Of a DNA stretch of 64,000 nucleotides, positions 3 to 9,917 are shown piece after piece. The position numbers and the translations under genes were made by a program. Positions within the stretch are counted from its first letter, which is position 1. Each line of letters begins with the position of its first letter. The stretch comes from Acidobacteriota bacterium. Lineage in GTDB: Bacteria > Acidobacteriota > Polarisedimenticolia > Gp22-AA2. The notes under the pieces are model-generated. The model did no database searches and was not told where the DNA came from. It saw nothing but the letters and a program-made list of their open reading frames with translations. The stretch covers positions 63,674 to 127,673 of the forward strand of contig QHXX01000021.1 in the NCBI GenBank assembly GCA_003223135.1, in the 5' to 3' direction.

Positions 3-1124
3 GTCTTCACTCAGGGGATCGATCAAACGTCCGTCGTCGGCGGCGTGAAGCTGCCCTATGAGGACGAGCTGTCCGGCGGGTACTCCTTCGAAGTCACGCC
101 CAACTCCTCCTTCGAGGTCCGGGGAATCTACCGGACCCAGGGGCGCGTTCTCGAGGACGTGCAGGTCAACACCATCGAACAGACCCAGAACTTCTACAAC
201 GGCGTCGCCTACGGTTACCCGTACGACCCGTTCGGCGGTGTCAAGAACGTGAACGGAGGGAAGAGCACCACCTTCCCGGCCACCCCGTTCGGCGCTTACT
301 TCCTGGCCAACCCGGGGACCCGACAGGTCCCACCTGGTGGACTGGCGAGTTTCCCGAAGCCGGAGCGCGTCTACAAGGCGCTCGAGCTCATCTACACCCG
401 GCGGCTGGCGGACCGCTGGTCGCTGTTCGCCAACTACCGCCTCTCCAGCCTGGAGGGGAACTACGAGGGCCTGTTCCGCAACGATAATGGACAGAGCGAC
501 CCGAACATCACGTCGCTGTATGATTTTCCCAACTCGCCTTTGATGTCCGGGCAGTTCCTGAAGGGTCCCCTGCCCGCGGACGCGCGGCACGTCGTGCACG
601 TCTATCCGTCGTACCAATTCGCGAACACGCTGCGCGTCGGAGCGAATTTCAGCTATACGAGCGGCGTGCCCCGGACCTCGCTCCTGGCGCACCCGAGCTA
701 CCAGAACGCCGGCGAGATCCCGGGGATCGACCCGGTGTACGCCTATTGGGCCGATCCGGTCGGCAATGCTAATCCGAGCGATTACGTCCTGCGCACGACT
801 CCCAGCCTGCAAGCGGCCCTGTCGGACCTGGAAAACGTGACTCAATCGGTGTTCCTGAAATCGTACACGCCGGTCAGGAGGGGCAACCTCGGGAGGACGC
901 CCGGGCAAACGAACATCGATCTGCACGCCGACTACCCGGTGCAGTTCAGCAAGAGCAATTTGAGGTTCATGCTGGACGTGTTCAACGTTCTGGACCGGCA
1001 GACGGTCGTCTCCTTCGACGACGACATCGAGCTGCGCGCCGGCGTCACGGATCCGGACTTCGGACAGCCGATCGCCTACATGTCGCCGAGGGCGTGGAGG
1101 CTGGCGGCCCGCTGGGAGTTCTGA
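3..1124 (+). CDS. TonB-dependent receptor, C-terminal part (5' end outside window)
   Basis: Frame is open from nt 3 (VFTQGIDQ...). Beta-barrel-like sequence (ELIYTRRLADRWSLFANYRLSSLEGNYEG; DVFNVLD) ending in aromatic ...RLAARWEF, typical of outer-membrane TonB/Oar-like receptors. Confidence 0.8.
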   Translation, partial: VFTQGIDQTSVVGGVKLPYEDELSGGYSFEVTPNSSFEVRGIYRTQGRVLEDVQVNTIEQTQNFYNGVAYGYPYDPFGGVKNVNGGKSTTFPATPFGAYFLANPGTRQVPPGGLASFPKPERVYKALELIYTRRLADRWSLFANYRLSSLEGNYEGLFRNDNGQSDPNITSLYDFPNSPLMSGQFLKGPLPADARHVVHVYPSYQFANTLRVGANFSYTSGVPRTSLLAHPSYQNAGEIPGIDPVYAYWADPVGNANPSDYVLRTTPSLQAALSDLENVTQSVFLKSYTPVRRGNLGRTPGQTNIDLHADYPVQFSKSNLRFMLDVFNVLDRQTVVSFDDDIELRAGVTDPDFGQPIAYMSPRAWRLAARWEF

Positions 1125-1165
1125 GGCGCGGCGGGATTCGGGACGCCTGCGGAACGTGTGCGCGT

Positions 1166-3817
1166 CTAGCGCAGCGACTCGACGGTGCGCGACAACCGCT
1201 CGATCTTCTCCTGCAGCTCCTGATCGATGCGCCGCACCTTCTCGACGATCTCGGGTCTTGCCCTGCCGAGGAAGTCTGCGTTCTGCAGCTTCAGCGAGTG
1301 ACCCTGGCGTTCCCTGGCGAGCTTGTCGATCTCCCGCTCGAGCCTGCGCCTTTCGGCCGCGAGGTCAAGGATTCCCTCGAGCGGCACGGCGAGGTCGACA
1401 CCCGGTGCCACGGCGCGGGCCGCGGGTCCGGACGCCGAGAGGTCGGGGATCTCGCGCACGCTCTCTAGGCGCGCGAGCGTCGTGATCGTGGAGGCGTTGG
1501 CCGTGATGGCCCGTGCCGTTTCCGCGTCACGCGCGTGCACGAGAAGCGGCAGACGGCGGGCGGGGTCGATAGTCAGCTCGGCCCGGATGTTCCGAACCCT
1601 GGCCACGACCTCCATCACCAGCGCGATCTCGCTCTCCGCCGAATCGTCCAGGAGGTCGGCATCGTGGGCCGGGTAGGTGGCCAGCGCGATCGTCTCCCCC
1701 CGGTGCGGGATCCTCTGCCAGAGATCCTCCGTGATGAACGGCATCACGGGGTGCAGCAATCGCAGCACCGCGTCCAGGACGTGCAGCAGCACGGCCCGGG
1801 CGCGGGCCGCTTCCTCCGGGGGCGCGCCGGGCAGAAGGTGCGGCTTGGCCATTTCCAGGTACCAGTCACAGAATTCGTGCCAGAGGAATTGATACAGGAC
1901 GTTGGCCGTTTCGTCGAAGCGGTATTCGGCCAGCCGCTCCTCCACTGTCTTCGCAACGCGTGAGAGGCGGCTCAGGATCCAGCGATCCTCGACACGCATG
2001 CGTCCGCGTCGTGGCAGGGGCGGTGGCGACGCCCCTTGCCCCGCCTCCCCGAGATTCAGGAGGACGAAGCGGGCCGCGTTCCAGATCTTATTGGCGAACG
2101 CCCGGTAGCCCACCATCCGCTCTTCGGCCAGCGGCAGGTCGGAGCCCGGCGTCGCCATGGCCGCCAGGGTGAAGCGCAGCGCGTCGGCGCCGTAGCGCTC
2201 GATGAGATCGAGGGGATCGATGACATTGCCGCGGGTCTTGGACATTTTCTGCCCCTCGGCGTCGCGCACGAGCCCGGTGATGTAGACGCGGTGGAACGGC
2301 ACCTCCTGCATGAAGCGCAGCCCCATCATGATCATCCGGCACACCCAGAAGAACAGGATGTCGAATCCGGTCACCAGCACCGAGGTGGGGTAGTAGCGCC
2401 GCAGGTCGGGCGTCTCGTCCGGCCAGCCGAGAGTCGAGAAGGGCCACAAGGCGGAGGAGAACCACGTGTCGAGAACGTCCGGGTCCTGCCGGAGCCCCCG
2501 GCCTCCGCAACGCCGGCACGCGGCGGGCGCCTCGCGCGCCACGTTGACCTCACTGCAACTCTCGCAGTGCCAGGCCGGTATCTGGTGCCCCCACCAGAGC
2601 TGTCGCGAGATGCACCAGTCGTGGATCTTTCCCATCCACTCGTTGTAGCTGTTCACCCAATGGGGGGGAGTGAAACGCACGCGACCGTCGGCGACCGCCC
2701 GGATGGCCTCGTCGGCCAGGGGCTTCACGCGCACGAACCACTGTGTCGACAGGTACGGCTCGATGACAGTATGGCAGCGCTGGCAGCGTCCGACACTGTG
2801 CACATGCTCCTTCACGGACACCAGGAGGCCCTGCGCCCGGAGGTCCTCCACGATGCGGCCGCGCGCCTCGAATCGGTCCAGGCCGCGGTACCTCTCGGGC
2901 ACGTTGTCGTTCATGCGTCCCTGCTCGTCCATCACGACGATCGACGCAAGACCGTTGCGGCGCGCCGCCTCGAAGTCGTTCGGGTCGTGCGCGGGGGTGA
3001 TCTTCACGGCGCCCGTGCCGAATTCCTTCTCCACGAACGGGTCGGCGACGATCGGCAGGGTACGGCCGACGAGCGGCAGGACGACCGTCTTGCCGACGAG
3101 GGCGCGGTAGCGCTCGTCCTCGGGGTGGACGGCGACGCCGGTGTCTCCGAGCATCGTCTCCGGCCGGGTCGTGGCCACCTCCATCCCGCCATGGCCGTCG
3201 GGGAATGGATAGCGGATGGTCCACAGGCTTCCCTGCGTCTCCTGCGGGATCACTTCGAGGTCGGAGATCGCCGTGCGGCACGCCGGGCACCAGTTGACGA
3301 TGAACTTGTCACGGTAGATGAGACCGGCCTCGTGCAGGCGCACGAAGGCCTCGCGCACCGCGCGCGAGAGCTGCGGATCCATCGTGAAGCGCGCGCGCGT
3401 CCAATCGCACGAGCAGCCGAGCCTCTTGAGCTGGCCGATGATGGCGCCCCCGTACTCTTCCTTCCACTGCCAGACCCTGCGCACGAACGCCTCGCGCCCG
3501 AGTGCCTCGCGGCTGGTCCCCTCCTTCGCGAGCTGCCGTTCCACCACCATCTGCGTGGCGATACCCGCGTGATCCGTCCCCGGCAGCCACAGCACGTCGT
3601 CGCCCCGCATGCGGCGATAGCGCGCCAGGATGTCCTGCAGCGTGTTGTTGAGTGCGTGTCCCATGTGCAGGCGGCCGGTGATGTTGGGTGGAGGGATCGC
3701 CATGGAGAACGGAGGTCGGGACGAGTCGACGCGCGCCGTGAACACCCCCAGCGTCAGCCAGTGGGTGTACCAGCGCTCCTCGATCCGGGCGGGTTCGAAC
3801 GTCTTGTCAAACTCCAT
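1166..3817 (-). CDS. valS: valine--tRNA ligase
   Basis: PPPNITGRLHMGH (HIGH), KMSKT (KMSKS), DWCISRQLWWGH and C-terminal coiled coil; 883 aa. Confidence 0.98.
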   Translation of the reverse strand: MEFDKTFEPARIEERWYTHWLTLGVFTARVDSSRPPFSMAIPPPNITGRLHMGHALNNTLQDILARYRRMRGDDVLWLPGTDHAGIATQMVVERQLAKEGTSREALGREAFVRRVWQWKEEYGGAIIGQLKRLGCSCDWTRARFTMDPQLSRAVREAFVRLHEAGLIYRDKFIVNWCPACRTAISDLEVIPQETQGSLWTIRYPFPDGHGGMEVATTRPETMLGDTGVAVHPEDERYRALVGKTVVLPLVGRTLPIVADPFVEKEFGTGAVKITPAHDPNDFEAARRNGLASIVVMDEQGRMNDNVPERYRGLDRFEARGRIVEDLRAQGLLVSVKEHVHSVGRCQRCHTVIEPYLSTQWFVRVKPLADEAIRAVADGRVRFTPPHWVNSYNEWMGKIHDWCISRQLWWGHQIPAWHCESCSEVNVAREAPAACRRCGGRGLRQDPDVLDTWFSSALWPFSTLGWPDETPDLRRYYPTSVLVTGFDILFFWVCRMIMMGLRFMQEVPFHRVYITGLVRDAEGQKMSKTRGNVIDPLDLIERYGADALRFTLAAMATPGSDLPLAEERMVGYRAFANKIWNAARFVLLNLGEAGQGASPPPLPRRGRMRVEDRWILSRLSRVAKTVEERLAEYRFDETANVLYQFLWHEFCDWYLEMAKPHLLPGAPPEEAARARAVLLHVLDAVLRLLHPVMPFITEDLWQRIPHRGETIALATYPAHDADLLDDSAESEIALVMEVVARVRNIRAELTIDPARRLPLLVHARDAETARAITANASTITTLARLESVREIPDLSASGPAARAVAPGVDLAVPLEGILDLAAERRRLEREIDKLARERQGHSLKLQNADFLGRARPEIVEKVRRIDQELQEKIERLSRTVESLR

Positions 3818-3888
3818 GGCGGAGAATGTGGGGTGCGGTAACGTTCCATTGCCCCGGTCCTCCGGGGAGTGGGCCGGCGCCTGTCGAT

Positions 3889-5175
3889 CTATGAACCGCT
3901 TTCCTCGAGTTCCTTGATCCGCTTGCGCACGAGCGCCTCGGCGACTTCGGGCACGATCTCCCAGGCGACCTCGCGCACGACCCGGTCCGCCAGGCGCTGC
4001 ACCACCTTCTCGGCGATCAGGTCGATCATCTCGGGGGTGAGGGCGACGTTTCGACCGTCGGCGGCCGGCTCGGGGCGCGCGCGATCACCCGCGGGCCGCA
4101 GCGGCGGCGCCGGGTCGTCCTGTTCCATCGGTCGGGGTGCTTCCCATCCCGCGCTCTCAGCGGGCTCGTCGACCGCCTGCCAGGTCTCCGCCGGCGGGGC
4201 CTCCGGCGGCGGCGCCCAGCCCCCGGTCCCCTCATCCTCCGACTGTCCTCCGCCCGGGGCGACCGCCTCAGGGGGCGCCTCGTCGATCAGATCGAACTCC
4301 GCCTCGAACGATCCGGAGAAGGAACCCCCAGGAGCGGCTCCGCCGGATGCGACACCCATGGGTGGAGGGCCGGAACTCCCCCCCTCCCCACGCTTCGTCA
4401 CCTCATCCCGTCGCAGCTTCACCGTCGAGGGGGAAGGTGCGCCCGCGCCCTCATCGAAACGGTCCGGAACGATCGCCCCTTCCATCCCGGCCTCCATCCC
4501 GACGTCGCCGAACCCGACGAACGAACCGCCGGCCCCCGGATCCGGGGACGCCAGCGACGGATGCGGCTGCGTCTCCCGATCGGGCTCATCGTCCGTGGGT
4601 GACGCTCCCGGAAGGGGCATCACCGGCCCCGGCCCGATCCTTTCCGCGAAGTCCGCGGGGGCGGCCTGCGGCGCGGCGCTCTGCAGACCGGCGCCCGGGG
4701 GCGGCGCCGGACGCATCCCTTCCCCCGCCCGTCCCGGGTCGACCCTGTACACCTCGCCGCCGGAAATAATGTCCATCCGCCCGCCTTCCTCATCGGAGGC
4801 GACCGACGGCGTCGCGGCGATCAATTCCTCCACCTTGGCGACGAGGACCTGCGACTCGAACGGCTTCGTGAGGTGTGCGTTGGCGCCCGCCGCTTCCGCC
4901 CGCTTCCTGTCGAACGGTTCGAACGTCCCGGTCAGCAGAAGGATCGGGATGCCGGCGGTGGCCGGGTTGCGCTTGAGCTGTTCGCACACCTCGTATCCGT
5001 TCTTCTCCGGCATGATGACGTCCAGGAGAACCACGTCCGGACGCACCTCGGCCACCTTCTTCAGCGCCTGCCCGCCGCTGCTGACGCAGATCACCCGGTA
5101 GTCGGCCTCCGAAAAGGTGAGTTCCACCACCTTCTGGATGGTGATGCTGTCATCCGCCAGCACGATCGTCTTCAC
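3889..5175 (-). CDS. RomR-like response regulator (receiver, Pro/acidic linker, conserved C-terminal helix)
   Basis: Receiver (LADDS, DVIMP, KPFESQ), about 250 aa low-complexity linker, C-terminus VVREVAWEIVPEVAEALVRKRIKELEE resembling the RomR-C region. Confidence 0.85.
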   Translation of the reverse strand: MKTIVLADDSITIQKVVELTFSEADYRVICVSSGGQALKKVAEVRPDVVLLDVIMPEKNGYEVCEQLKRNPATAGIPILLLTGTFEPFDRKRAEAAGANAHLTKPFESQVLVAKVEELIAATPSVASDEEGGRMDIISGGEVYRVDPGRAGEGMRPAPPPGAGLQSAAPQAAPADFAERIGPGPVMPLPGASPTDDEPDRETQPHPSLASPDPGAGGSFVGFGDVGMEAGMEGAIVPDRFDEGAGAPSPSTVKLRRDEVTKRGEGGSSGPPPMGVASGGAAPGGSFSGSFEAEFDLIDEAPPEAVAPGGGQSEDEGTGGWAPPPEAPPAETWQAVDEPAESAGWEAPRPMEQDDPAPPLRPAGDRARPEPAADGRNVALTPEMIDLIAEKVVQRLADRVVREVAWEIVPEVAEALVRKRIKELEESGS

Positions 5176-5674
5176 CGGGTTTCCTCCTTCCGCGCGGCTC
5201 CGCCGCGGGCACGCCCAAGGACGCGAACAACCTGTCAGTGTCGAGCAGGACGATGACCTCCCCGTCCCGGTGCAGGACGCGCTTCACGTAGGCGTCGCTC
5301 ACGCCGCACGGCGCCGCAGCACCGTCCGCGCGACCGGCCTCCGTTTCCGTCTCCTCGACCAGGTCGACCCGGTCCCCCAGAAGACCGAGGGCCACTTCCC
5401 CCCAGTCGCACACGATGAGGTGACCGGACTCGGCGACCGGCCCCGCGGGTGCCGGGGGCCGCTGTCCCGACCAGAGCGGATCGAAACGCTTCAGGTCATA
5501 AACCGGAAGCGCCACGCCCCCGTGCAGGGCCACGCCGCTCACGAACGCGTGGCTCCCTGGCACGCGCACGACGCGCGGTCGCTCCGTCACCTCGCGCACG
5601 ATGCCGAGCGGAAGGGCCGCTCCGGCGCTCCCGACGCGAAAGCCGATCAGCCGGGCGCCCGCGCTGTCGCTCAC
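5150..5674 (-). CDS. CheW-like domain protein
   Basis: LIGFRVG...LPLGIVREV...VRVPGSHAFVSGVALHGGVALPVYDL...GLLGDRVD...LLDTDRLF fits the CheW pattern. Confidence 0.7.
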   Translation of the reverse strand: MSDSAGARLIGFRVGSAGAALPLGIVREVTERPRVVRVPGSHAFVSGVALHGGVALPVYDLKRFDPLWSGQRPPAPAGPVAESGHLIVCDWGEVALGLLGDRVDLVEETETEAGRADGAAAPCGVSDAYVKRVLHRDGEVIVLLDTDRLFASLGVPAAEPRGRRKPGEDDRAGG

Positions 5675-6057
5675 AGGAGCCCGTTCTCGTCCAGGAGCAG
5701 GCGCGGGTCACGGCCGTCCGAAAAGACGCCGCGAAAGGCGCGCCGGGGACGCGCGAAAATGAACGCCGGGAGCGGAGCAATGTCGCCCGCGGGGACATCG
5801 CGGATGGCTTCGGCGCCGTCGACCGGGACGATGGCGCGTCGGCGCGAGCCCTCCAGGAGAAGGTACACGGGCGAGGGCCCGCGTCGCTCTCCCACCGCGG
5901 CGTGCAGGTCCAGAACCGGGAAGCGCTCGCCGCGATACACGGCCTCCGACTCCTCAAGGTGGAAATCGACTTCGACCGCCGGGTCGACAATCTGCGCCAC
6001 CGCGTCGGCCGGCACCGCGTAGCGACCTTCACCGACGCTCACCATGAGGAGTTTCAT
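5671..6057 (-). CDS. CheW-like domain protein (short)
   Basis: GRYAVPADAVAQIV...YRGERFPVLDL...AIVPVDGAEAI...LLLDENGLL; 4-nt overlap with the next gene. Confidence 0.7.
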   Translation of the reverse strand: MKLLMVSVGEGRYAVPADAVAQIVDPAVEVDFHLEESEAVYRGERFPVLDLHAAVGERRGPSPVYLLLEGSRRRAIVPVDGAEAIRDVPAGDIAPLPAFIFARPRRAFRGVFSDGRDPRLLLDENGLL

Positions 6058-6069
6058 GCCCCTGCGCCA

Positions 6070-6098
6070 AAACTAGCCCAAAGGGTGGAGCCTGTCAA
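6070..6098 (-). promoter_or_regulatory. sigma70-type promoter for the cheW-cheW-romR-like genes
   Basis: Minus strand TTGACA (6098-6093), 17 bp, TAGTTT (6075-6070); ends 12 nt before the ATG at 6057. Confidence 0.6.
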
Positions 6099-6115
6099 GA
6101 AAAGCGTCAAGGCCT

Positions 6116-6532
6116 TCAGCGGCGGCGGGGCGGGACGTTGGTCTTCACCCACTCAACGACGTCCTGGGTGCTGGCGCCCGGGGTGAAGATCTGCCGGACG
6201 CCGGCCCGCTTCAGAGCCGGGATGTCCTCATCCGGGATGATGCCCCCGCCGAACACGACGATGTCGGGGTCGGTCTTCTCCGCGAGGAGCCTCAGGATCT
6301 TCGGGAAGATCGTGTTGTGGGCGCCGGAGAGAAGGGACAGCCCGATCCCGTCCACGTCCTCCTGCAGGGCAGTGGCGACAACCATCTCCGGCGTCTGGTG
6401 AAGACCGGTATAGATGACTTCGAACCCGGCGTCCCTGAGGGCCCGGGCGATGATCTTGGCGCCGCGATCGTGTCCGTCCAGTCCCACCTTGCCGACCAGG
6501 AGCCGGACCTTTCTCTCCCCGCTCATCGTCAC
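6116..6532 (-). CDS. cobalamin-binding small subunit of acyl-CoA mutase (IcmB/MutB-like)
   Basis: DGHDRG (DxHxxG) B12 motif and SLLSGAH; 138 aa stand-alone. Confidence 0.92.
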
Positions 6533-8220
6533 AGCTGCACCCGGCCTTCGCGGTACGCGCCGAAGACCGTCTTCAACGTGTCGCAGATCTCTCCGACCGA
6601 GGCATAGGCCCGCACGGCATCCAGGATGGCGGGCATCAGATTCTCCTTCGTCCGCGCCGTGTGCTCGAGCCTCTTCAGGACCTTGGCGTGCCGGTCCTTC
6701 TCACGGCGCTGGCGGACGGTCTCCAGGCGGGCCACCTGGCCAGGCTCGACCTCGGCGCCGATCTTGAGGGTCGGCGCCTTCATGTTGTCCCCTTCGGAGT
6801 AGCGGTTGACGCCCACGACGATTTTCTCGCCGGCGTCGACCTGTCTCTGGTACAGGTAGGCCGCCTCGGCGATCTCGCGCTGCGGAAAGCCCTGTTCGAT
6901 CGCGGGAACGATCCCGCCCATCTGGTCGATGCGGTGGATGTAATCCCATGCCATCAGCTCCAGGCGGTCGGTGAGCGCCTCGACGAAGTAAGACCCCGCC
7001 AGAGGATCGACCGTGTTCACGACACCGCTTTCCTCCGCGATGATCTGCTGGGTGCGGAGCGCGATACGGGCCGAATTCTCCGTCGGCAGAGCGAGCGTCT
7101 CGTCCAGGGCGTTGGTGTGCAGCGACTGCGTCCCTCCCAGGACGGCCGCGAGGGCCTGGAGCGTCACGCGCACGACGTTGTTGATCGGCTGCTGCGCGGT
7201 GAGCGAACAGCCGGCCGTCTGGACGTGTGTGCGCAGCATCCAGGAGCGCGGGGACTTCGCGTGGAAACGATCGCGCATGAGGGCGCACCAGACGCGCCGT
7301 GCCGCGCGGAGCTTGGCAACCTCTTCGAAGAAATCGTTGTGCGAGTTGAAGAAGAAGGAGAAGCGGGGAGCGAACACGTCGACATCGAGCCCGGCATCCA
7401 CGCAGGACTGCACGTAGCCGATCCCGTCGGCCAGGGTGAACGCCAGCTCCTGCGCGGCGGTCGAGCCGGCCTCGCGAATGTGGTAGCCGCTAATCGAGAT
7501 GGTGTTCCACTTCGGCACGCGCTCGGCGCAGAAGGCGACCATGTCGGTGATGATCCGCAGCGAGGGCACGGGAGGATAAATCCATTCCTTCTGCGCGATG
7601 TATTCCTTCAGGATGTCGTTCTGCACCGTGCCCTCGAGCTTTTCGAGCGGCACGCCCTGCTTTTCGGCGACGGCCAGGTACATTGCCAGAACGACGGCGG
7701 CCGGGGCGTTGATCGTCATGGACGTGGAAACCTTGTCGAGTGGAATGCCCTTGAACAGCACCTCCATGTCGGCCAGCGTGTCGATGGCCACCCCTTCGCG
7801 CCCGACCTCCCCCTCTGCCAGGGGGTCGTCCGAGTCGCGCCCCATGAGCGTGGGGAGGTCGAAGGCGACCGACAGGCCGGTCTGGCCGTGCTCCAGCAGA
7901 TAGTGGAACCTCTTGTTGGTGTCCTCGGCGGTCCCGAAGCCGGCAAACTGCCGCATGGTCCAGAGCCTGCCGCGATACATCGTCGGATGGACGCCGCGCG
8001 TGAACGGCGGCTCGCCGGGGAATCCGAGCTTGCCGGCGGGGTCCCAACCTTTCAGGTCCTCCACCGCGTACAGTCGCTCGATCGGCAGGTTGGAGACGGT
8101 CGTGAACTCCTTCTTCCTTTCCGGCTTCTTCCCGAGGGCATGGCCCAGCGTGTTCTCCTCCCAGTCCCGCCGGGTGCGCGTGGTCACCGTCGAGGTCCGG
8201 CCTCCATTTTTCGGTTTCAT
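6529..8220 (-). CDS. B12-dependent acyl-CoA mutase large subunit with isobutyryl-CoA mutase-type residues (IcmA-like)
   Basis: [59 protein letters not shown]; no B12 domain in this chain. Confidence 0.9.
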
Positions 8221-8221
8221 T

Positions 8222-9367
8222 TCAGTCCTCTTTCAGGATCTCCTTGGCGATCACCAACCGCTGGATCTCGGACGTGCCTTCGTAGATCTCGGTGATCTTG
8301 GCGTCCCGGAACAGCCGCTCCACCGCGTACTCGTCGATGTACCCGTAACCGCCGTGGATCTGCACTCCTTCTTTCGCCGCCCGCATGCAGGCCTCCGAGG
8401 CGAACAGCTTGGCCATGCTGGTCTCGAGCGAGCAACGCCTCTGCTGGTCACGCAGCCAGGCGGCGCGGTAGGCCAAAAGACGCGCCGCCTCGAGCTCGGT
8501 GGCCATGTCGGCGAGCTTCCACTGGGTGGCCTGGAAGTCGGCGATGCGCTGGCCGAAGGCGCGCCGCCCCTGACTGTAGGCCAGCGATTCCTCCAGTGCG
8601 GCGCGCCCGATTCCGATTGCCTGGGCCGCGATGCCGATGCGGCCGCCGTCCAAGGTGCTCATGGCGATCTTGAATCCTTCCCCTTCGGCCCCCAGCAGAT
8701 TGGCCGCCGGCACCTCGCAGTCGTCGAGCACGATCTCGACGGATCCAGAGCAGGTAATGCCCATCTTGTGCTCCGGCTTTCCGAGACGGAGACCGGGGAA
8801 GTCCCGCTCGACGATGAACGCGCAGATCCCGTGGTGGCGCAGCTTCGGGTCCAGCGTGGCGTACACCACGAACGTGTGCGCCGCCACTCCGTTCGTGACG
8901 AACACCTTGTTGCCCTTCAGAAGGTAGCGATCGGCCTTCTTCCGGGCCAGGGTACGCAGCGCCGCCGCGTCCGAGCCGCAGTCGGGCTCGGTCAGACAAT
9001 ACGCCCCGATCTTTTCTCCGCGCGCGTGCGGCGCCAGGTACTTCCGCTTCTGCGCCTCCGTCCCGTGGCGCAGGACCGGGGCGCAGAACAGAGAGTTGTT
9101 GACCGACAGGATGACGCCGCTCGAGGCGCAGGCGCGCGACACCTCTTCGATGGCGATGACGTAGGAGACACCGTCGAAGCCGGCGCCGCCGTAAGTCTCC
9201 GGGACCATCATGCCGCACAGACCGAGCTCGGCGCAGCGCCGGTAATTGTCGATCGGAAACTCCCGGCTGCGATCGAGCGCGGCGGCCCGGGGCTTCAGCA
9301 CTTCGTCCGCGAAGGCGTGCACGGTGTCCCGCAGCAGCTCCTGCTCCCGCGTCAGCTGGAAGTCCAT
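8222..9367 (-). CDS. acyl-CoA dehydrogenase (short/branched-chain family)
   Basis: Start placed at ATG 9367 (MDFQLTREQ); [37 protein letters not shown]. Confidence 0.93.
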
Positions 9368-9371
9368 CGTC

Positions 9372-9917
9372 TCAGGTCTCCGCCTCGATGAGGCCGAAGC
9401 GGCCGTCGCCGCGCCGGACCAGCAAACAAAAGCGCTGACTATCGGCGTCGCGGAACACCAGGAACGGATCGGAATTTTCCTGAAGGAGCAGGATCGCCTC
9501 GTCCACCGACATCGGCTTGACGGGGACGCGACCCATGGGAACGACGATCGGACCGTCCGCCCCCGGGGACGCGCCGAGCTCGGGAGTGACCGCCCCGCGT
9601 CTCGGCGACTCCCGCATGGCCCGGCGCTTGCGACCCTGTGCAATCTTCTCGTGATGCTTGCGCGCCTGGGCCAGCAGGCGATCGATGGCGACACCCAGCG
9701 ACTCCTCGAACTCCGCTCCGTCCGCCTTGGCCGTCAGGGTCCCGACGCGCGCATGAACCACGATTTCGGCCAGGTGACGGTGCTTTTCCCGCGTCAGGAT
9801 CACGTGCGCGTCCGGGCTTTCGTGCAGAAGACGCTCGAGTTTCGCGAGCTTCCTCTCGGCGAACGCCTTGAGGTCGGGCGTCAGGTCGGCCTTGCGTCCC
9901 GTGAACACAATCGTCAT
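9372..9917 (-). CDS. hpf: ribosome hibernation promoting factor (long HPF/RaiA)
   Basis: FTGRKADLTPDLKAFAERKLAKL N-terminal domain and KPMSVDEAILLL C-terminal domain; directly downstream of rpoN. Confidence 0.88.
   Translation of the reverse strand: MTIVFTGRKADLTPDLKAFAERKLAKLERLLHESPDAHVILTREKHRHLAEIVVHARVGTLTAKADGAEFEESLGVAIDRLLAQARKHHEKIAQGRKRRAMRESPRRGAVTPELGASPGADGPIVVPMGRVPVKPMSVDEAILLLQENSDPFLVFRDADSQRFCLLVRRGDGRFGLIEAET

Follow-up and report, generated by a model that had tools for sequence, protein, structure and literature searches.

A RomR polarity regulator predicted from its sequence between two CheW-like genes and valS in an uncultured acidobacterium

Does an uncultured acidobacterium carry RomR, the polarity regulator of Myxococcus xanthus, and what would the protein do there? 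The question is raised by a gene at positions 3889 to 5175, on the minus strand, of a 64,000-nucleotide stretch of contig QHXX01000021.1 (assembly GCA_003223135.1, positions 63,674 to 127,673 of the forward strand), referred to below as the window. It belongs to a metagenome-assembled genome (MAG) of 158 contigs, 92% complete, and the nearest homologues that have a name bear the label Candidatus Polarisedimenticolia, which is an uncultured class of Acidobacteriota. A first reading, made from the sequence alone, had proposed a RomR-like protein encoded next to valS. Our analysis indicated that, by its sequence, the gene is the RomR orthologue of this Polarisedimenticolia acidobacterium, and its product is probably a polar scaffold, part of a small-GTPase (MglA) switch by which pilus polarity is directed.

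The romR gene and its relationship to Myxococcota RomR

The gene and the parts of its product, with the evidence for each (AlphaFold2, AF2; its confidence score, predicted local distance difference test, pLDDT), are the following.

3889..5175, minus strand: romR, 428-aa RomR orthologue made of a receiver, a disordered linker and the RomR-C helix (translation, Pfam, BLASTP, reciprocal best hits, AF2)
4810..5175, minus strand: receiver domain, residues 1-122 (Pfam PF00072, E 9e-23; 60% identity to a Myxococcota RomR receiver)
4042..4809, minus strand: intrinsically disordered linker, residues 123-378 (composition; AF2 pLDDT below 50)
4453..4530, minus strand: lineage-specific linear motif of the linker, residues 216-241, GGSFVGFGDVG...IVPDRFD (alignment A1)
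3892..4041, minus strand: RomR-C, Glu-rich C-terminal helix, residues 379-428 (AF2 helices; in-register alignment to Myxococcota RomR-C)

The open reading frame (ORF) is intact over 428 codons, with its stop codon at 3889-3891; it starts with GTG, and a GGAGG Shine-Dalgarno sequence lies 7-8 nt before this codon. The protein has a three-part architecture: a receiver (1-122), a 256-residue disordered linker and a C-terminal helix containing AWEIVPEVAE. Response_reg was the sole domain recognised by Pfam (residues 4-115, E 9e-23), and an NCBIfam scan returned sub-threshold receiver matches and nothing else. Since Pfam finds a receiver and no other domain, the protein has no DNA-binding output.

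An AF2 model based on 15 homologues was confident across the receiver (pLDDT 76-93), which closes with TKPFESQ. Residues D8, D9, the phospho-acceptor D52 and K104 are invariant in an alignment of 15 homologues (alignment A1). There are two candidates for the beta4 threonine: T84 is invariant, and T82 is replaced by Cys in 2 of the 15 sequences. The linker contains 16% P, 16% G, 15% A, 10% E and 8% D, so that P, G and A together make up 47% of its residues, and carries a net charge of -28; pLDDT was below 50 across nearly all of residues 162-376. It is poorly conserved in alignment A1 and can be aligned within the clade only, with the exception of one motif in which G216, G217, G221, F222 and D224 are invariant and which takes the form GGSYxGFADxG...VPDRFD in the clade. 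A regular expression for this motif matched six Polarisedimenticolia-like loci only (L006-L009, L011 and L012), and the motif was absent from the RomR of the remaining Acidobacteriota and Myxococcota loci examined; its sequence makes it a candidate lineage-specific binding site. The tail of the protein, DRVVREVAWEIVPEVAEALVRKRIKELEESGS, was modelled as two RomR-C helices (381-407 and 409-426, pLDDT 72-85). W405, P409 and E413 are invariant in RomR-C, and Glu accounts for 18% of its residues; a Glu-rich C-terminal helix with invariant Trp and Pro is part of the published definition of the family (PMC3441718). The RomR-C motif was found in nearly all complete RomR loci.

The proteins used for comparison were the valS-adjacent RomR of an Anaeromyxobacteraceae genome (L079) and that of a Myxococcota MAG (L065), and not M. 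xanthus RomR itself. A word-index search with RomR-C alone had returned close relatives only and no named Myxococcus protein, and these two were used instead. The RomR of an Anaeromyxobacter MAG (L081, 7998-9338) was left out: its reading frame changes within a Pro-rich repeat and RomR-C is lost. As the near-identical L079 gene is intact, this frameshift is probably an assembly error rather than a truncated RomR.

The receiver is 58-60% identical to the two Myxococcota RomR receivers (60%, E 8e-46, by BLASTP against the Anaeromyxobacteraceae protein). A second BLASTP match, in register, aligned residues 399-426 of the C-terminal helix with residues 449-476 of the Anaeromyxobacteraceae RomR (E 6e-5). 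Searching the 3.7-Mb genome with the Myxococcota RomR receivers gave this gene as the best hit (E 1e-44 to 1e-45, 151-154 bits), followed by the next receiver at 1e-13 to 1e-15 (about 63-67 bits). The best genome-wide match to the last 60 residues of the Myxococcota RomRs was likewise the C-terminus of this protein (E 1e-4). The reverse search of the 6.2-Mb Anaeromyxobacteraceae genome returned its valS-adjacent RomR with 123 bits, the next of 75 receiver hits scoring 68 bits. The pattern WE[IV][IVL]P occurs once among the 2857 predicted proteins of the genome, a set obtained by a home-made gene call. When the last 57 residues (RomR-C) were used as a query, 1616 cluster representatives were found among 1.84 billion proteins; nearly all of the best 150 of these matches lay at the extreme C-terminus or within a few residues of it.

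Residues of known function in M. xanthus could be placed on the protein. The phospho-acceptor D53 is matched by D52, V17 and E108 by V16 and E107 (an offset of -1), and W394 and E402 by W405 and E413. The pair V17/E108 contacts residues L75/R76/W87 of RomX (bioRxiv 10.1101/2024.02.20.581209). M. xanthus RomR-C is a module that binds MglC, oligomerises and targets the pole; its Trp, Pro and Glu are needed for MglC binding, which the W394A substitution abolishes (PMC12719032).

If the protein were a generic orphan response regulator that ended in a low-complexity tail and resembled RomR only superficially, its receiver would likewise be the sole domain known to Pfam and NCBIfam, and its linker would equally fail to align between phyla. 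This explanation is hardly tenable. It is refuted by the reciprocal best hits, which leave the next receiver about 30 orders of magnitude behind, by the in-register alignment of RomR-C, whose motif is unique in the proteome, and by the presence of that motif across loci; the synteny in common with M. xanthus also speaks against it.

Gene neighbourhood of romR

The genes flanking romR, all on the minus strand, are listed below.

5671..6057, minus strand: cheW-like gene a, 128 aa (Pfam CheW, E 7e-12)
5150..5674, minus strand: cheW-like gene b, 174 aa (Pfam CheW, E 1.6e-15)
1166..3817, minus strand: valS, bacterial-type valine-tRNA ligase (Pfam; NCBIfam valS equivalogs above cut-off)
6116..8220, minus strand: small (B12-binding) and large subunits of methylmalonyl-CoA mutase (Pfam; synteny)

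Both CheW-like ORFs lie directly upstream of romR. The stop codon of gene a and the start codon of gene b overlap in GTGA, and gene b overlaps the start of romR by 26 nt. The product of gene a aligned with residues 37-88 of a double-CheW protein from Anaeromyxobacteraceae (E 4e-4) and that of gene b with residues 165-261 of the same protein (E 2e-3); the split pair is colinear with the N- and C-terminal halves of the fused Myxococcota two-CheW protein. No such alignment was obtained with the canonical CheW of the che cluster found elsewhere in the genome. Anaeromyxobacteraceae loci contain a 270-aa double-CheW ORF, then RomR, then valS. At the M. xanthus locus, MXAN4460 encodes the Val-tRNA synthetase and MXAN4462 a protein with two CheW domains (Leonardy 2007, PMC2034494, Fig. 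1A), and the order found here (two CheW domains, romR, valS) is the M. xanthus order. A custom hidden Markov model applied to 80 loci detected CheW neighbours in the Polarisedimenticolia-like group, in Anaeromyxobacteraceae and, weakly, at locus L014, and nowhere else.

Much of what the sequence-only reading had claimed was borne out at this point. The order of a CheW gene, romR and valS that it gave for M. xanthus is the published one (Leonardy 2007, PMC2034494, Fig. 1A). Its description of a receiver, a long Pro/Gly/acidic linker and a C-terminal helix with no DNA-binding output agreed with Pfam, composition and the AF2 model, and the close homologues labelled Candidatus Polarisedimenticolia, Acidobacteriota, fitted the "probable acidobacterium" that it had named. 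A RomR-like identity with the matching neighbourhood was supported by the reciprocal best hits, the in-register C-terminal helix and the CheW-romR-valS order; the alignment itself (58-60% in the receiver, RomR-C in register) was made with Myxococcota RomRs other than that of M. xanthus.

It is possible, though not probable, that the two CheW-like proteins act as adaptors dedicated to docking the RomR receiver on a chemoreceptor/CheA array. In that case the operon would be ancient, and Myxococcota and Acidobacteriota would either share it or have exchanged it; the adjacency of valS would reflect co-transcription with a growth-coupled housekeeping gene. Such adaptors would provide a physical route for a chemosensory reset of the polarity switch, a step not yet explained in M. 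xanthus.

Downstream of romR, and likewise on the minus strand, valS begins after a gap of 71 nt, in which a terminator scan found no terminator-like site. Among the 57 RomR loci of Acidobacteriota and Myxococcota with enough downstream sequence, 32 have valS as the next gene on the same strand. These romR-adjacent genes are of two types, mutually about 28% identical: 19 are bacterial (L006-L014, L065, L068, L072, L074, L077, L079-L082 and L085) and 13 are of the alternative type (NCBIfam NF000540; L035, L046-L048, L050, L052, L053, L055, L060, L061 and L069-L071). The romR-adjacent aminoacyl-tRNA synthetase of Vicinamibacteria, 28% identical to ValS, was considered as an IleS or LeuS; this was rejected, as it is an alternative ValS matching NF000540 with 1120 bits. 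Because the 19 and 13 loci carry distinct types, the adjacency of romR and valS survives a change of valS type. valS is a conserved neighbour of romR, not a functional part of the system.

Further upstream, the methylmalonyl-CoA mutase genes are conserved at this position in many Acidobacteriota. A sigma-70 promoter scan of positions 1000-8500 found nothing; TTGACA-N17-TAGTTT upstream of cheW-like gene a was seen by eye and is a visual lead only. Beyond the mutase genes, overlapping ORFs of about 490 codons occupy both strands (8222-9694, minus; 7913-9391, plus), and the minus-strand product is rich in Arg, Ser and Pro, a composition typical of a wrong frame.

Polarity, pilus and Che genes and a proposed role for RomR

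The genome elsewhere contains the following genes related to polarity and chemosensing (contig: positions).

C54:152827-153936: mglB-mglA operon (PDB hits)
C8:44716-45120: MglC-like roadblock protein, 134 aa (best PDB hit MglC, 7ct3, E 2e-7)
C38:30453-37000: single Che cluster encoding CheR, a 412-aa HAMP-containing methyl-accepting chemotaxis protein, CheW, CheA, CheC and CheD

In PDB searches, MglA matched M. xanthus MglA with about 80% identity (E 2e-95), and MglB matched M. xanthus MglB, C-terminal helix included (E 4e-55). The mglA gene was located as the neighbour of a Roadblock match; the Pfam Ras family (PF00071) had led to long GTPase ORFs only. One of these is a second, long-tailed MglA paralogue on the contig of the window, about 11.4 kb before the window start (C47:50984-52291, minus strand). 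Its GTPase domain shares 61% identity with MglA (E 5e-74) and is followed by a tail of about 230 residues, rich in Pro, Ala and acidic residues, with a short conserved C-terminal segment. This paralogue lies between der/engA and a gene whose product is predicted to cross the membrane several times and looks CPBP-like by eye.

The MglC-like protein matched Pfam Robl_LC7 below the family cut-off. Both of its interaction patches can be recognised: the FDI of the MglB interface is kept as LDI (L39/D40/I42), and K104/R106/R110 of the RomR interface are kept as R117/R119/R123. Its gene overlaps the end of a gene for a 379-aa tetratricopeptide repeat (TPR) protein (C8:44716-46208), and the two genes may form a unit that this lineage conserves as part of its polarity module.

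The type IVa pilus set is complete, with pilMNOPQ on C57, pilB and pilT on C8 and a second pilT on C153; both PilT genes scored above the family cut-off. Genes for a histidine kinase and a sigma-54-type response regulator follow pilB and pilT on C8 and are PilS/PilR-like by position only. No gene for the flagellar export protein FlhA was found in the genome, and the C38 cluster contains neither a CheY nor a CheB gene; the Che pathway is probably not flagellar. As a separate observation, three paralogues of about 70 residues are encoded at C25:10364-10582 and on two other contigs, all with the pattern RF-x-L/I-x-D...LE-x-x-PTSPAALRTK-x-GEM...NPETGEYRVVLQGTLD.

On this basis, RomR probably acts as the polar scaffold of an MglA switch directing pilus polarity, by a mechanism that we take from the M. 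xanthus literature (PMC3441718, PMC10329633, PMC12719032, PMC9481161). The RomR-C helix would trimerise, target the cell pole and bind the basic cleft of an MglC roadblock dimer. MglC would bring in the GTPase-activating protein (GAP) MglB, giving a self-reinforcing, GAP-rich pole, and the disordered linker would contribute affinity for the pole. The receiver surface carrying V16 and E107 would dock a RomX-type adaptor; at the opposite pole, this adaptor would capture MglA-GTP, and MglA would activate pili there. The outcome would be that one pole is chosen for type IVa pilus activity; pili are proposed because the genome encodes them and has no detectable flagellar export apparatus. Since romR is translationally coupled to the two CheW-like genes, the switch is probably fed by the single Che pathway, and phosphorylation of D52, possibly reached through the two CheW-like proteins, could trigger an inversion of polarity.

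Several points weigh against this role. FrzE is a CheA with a fused C-terminal receiver, which is the mark of a Frz-type system. The only CheA here (697 aa) consists of Hpt, P2, dimerisation, HATPase and CheW domains and, lacking a C-terminal receiver, is not FrzE-like. RomX was not found by motif scans of all small ORFs (regular expressions L/R-x10-W and [RK]-x10-W near the C-terminus, and relaxed versions) or by a PDB search of 12 small helical ORFs, in which no RomX query was used; no zinc-ribbon or RomX-like gene was seen next to mglBA or beside the gene for the long-tailed MglA. RomY was not found either, but no RomY query was used and no search was aimed at it. Within RomR-C, the positions of E390/K391 are charge-swapped (R401/E402). 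The orthology comparison rests on the L079 and L065 proteins and not on the M. xanthus RomR sequence, and the source is an incomplete MAG from an uncultured organism. Lastly, Chloracidobacterium validum, a cultured relative that has the module, is reported to bear pili but to be non-motile (PMC12816986).

Some of these points would suit a different arrangement, in which a true RomR homologue serves mainly as the CheY-like phosphorylation output of the single Che pathway, the CheW-like pair tethers its receiver to the array, and MglA has a secondary part or none. The receiver keeps all phospho-acceptor residues, romR is translationally coupled to the two CheW-like genes, and the RomX scans and single PDB search, made with no RomX query, found no candidate for the adaptor; the CheA has no receiver of its own, and there is no CheY gene in the C38 cluster. 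We nevertheless consider this arrangement unlikely. RomR-C is strictly conserved, including the Trp needed for MglC binding, the MglC-like protein keeps its RomR-binding basic patch, and CheW neighbours are missing from most romR loci of Acidobacteriota. RomR and MglA also co-occur strongly across the phylum. Of 201 acidobacterial species genomes, sampled evenly, 96 had a RomR-type match of E 1e-25 or better, nearly always as exactly one copy; MglA accompanied it in 88 of these 96 and was found in 59 of the 105 genomes that are RomR-negative (Fisher p 9e-9).

The polar scaffold could also be retained for another purpose, the RomR/MglA module serving adhesion, pilus-dependent uptake or a pole identity linked to the cell cycle. 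There is a precedent in Bdellovibrio, where RomR and MglA have been repurposed for the prey-invasion pole (PMC3983030, PMC11025332); the description of Chloracidobacterium as piliated but lacking motility and the second, long-tailed MglA paralogue would fit such a use. The two PilT retraction ATPases with the full pilMNOPQ/pilB set fit twitching motility, and MglA and MglB, with its C-terminal helix, are close to the M. xanthus proteins. A process other than motility thus appears rather improbable, and direction of pilus polarity by an MglA switch remains the role that we favour.

RomR in Acidobacteria and in known systems

The sequence-only reading had looked to mglA, mglB and motility genes as companions of romR, and mglA, mglB and a complete type IVa pilus set are indeed present, together with an mglC-like gene. 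It had also described the lineage as one where RomR has not been studied. This stands for experiments, as no experimental work on the polarity module in Acidobacteria was found in the literature searched. It does not stand for the occurrence of the protein: RomR sequences from Acidobacteria were placed in the family in 2012 (Keilberg 2012, PMC3441718), and a set consisting of MglA and MglB plus RomR, RomX and RomY was listed for Chloracidobacterium, Koribacter and Solibacter in Table S1 of PMC9481161. The acidobacterial RomRs named in these sources are Cabther_A0541, Acid345_0072 and Acid_3193. As acidobacterial RomR was already catalogued in 2012 and 2022, and RomX and RomY also stand in published tables for the phylum, the novelty of the gene is low; it is a well-supported further RomR, in an unstudied class. 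Newer are the CheW-romR-valS order common to two phyla and the adjacency of romR and valS kept with two distinct valS types.

Collectively, the data presented indicated that a Myxococcus-type polarity module is common in Acidobacteria, about half of the sampled species having RomR and nearly all of these MglA as well, and that one uncultured class retains even the M. xanthus arrangement of the CheW-romR-valS operon. Acidobacteria are therefore a natural second system in which to look for the ancestral parts of the RomR/MglA/MglB/MglC circuit. A further point of interest is MXAN_4462, an unstudied gene for two CheW domains, which might connect RomR with chemosensing.

The closest likeness is to M. 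xanthus RomR (MXAN_4461; Leonardy 2007, Keilberg 2012, Szadkowski 2019, Carreira 2023), which has the same three-part architecture in 420 aa, compared with 428 here. In both proteins the receiver keeps the phospho-acceptor Asp and the residues that contact RomX, and the C-terminal helix has the Trp, Pro and Glu for MglC binding. Their genes share the order of two CheW domains, romR and valS, and co-occur with MglA, MglB, MglC (an MglC-like protein here) and type IV pili. They differ in the linker, which is rich in Pro, Gly, Ala and acidic residues and contains a clade motif here, whereas that of M. xanthus is a Pro-rich repeat region. The CheW domains, fused in Myxococcus and Anaeromyxobacter, are split here into two overlapping genes; the charges at the E390/K391 positions are exchanged; and no Frz-type fusion of CheA and receiver is present.

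The RomRs Cabther_A0541, Acid345_0072 and Acid_3193 belong to the same phylum and family, in other lineages: they come from the cultured Chloracidobacterium, for which Table S1 of PMC9481161 gives the whole set from MglA to RomY, and two 'Candidatus' soil species, whereas the RomR described here comes from an uncultured member of the Polarisedimenticolia. Its locus has Myxococcus-like CheW neighbours, unlike the other acidobacterial loci examined (with weak hits at L014). RomR of Bdellovibrio bacteriovorus (Bd2761) is likewise a RomR from outside Myxococcus, and marks a pole with MglA. Bdellovibrio has no MglB and uses the module for prey invasion; in contrast, mglB and an mglC-like gene are both present in this acidobacterium.

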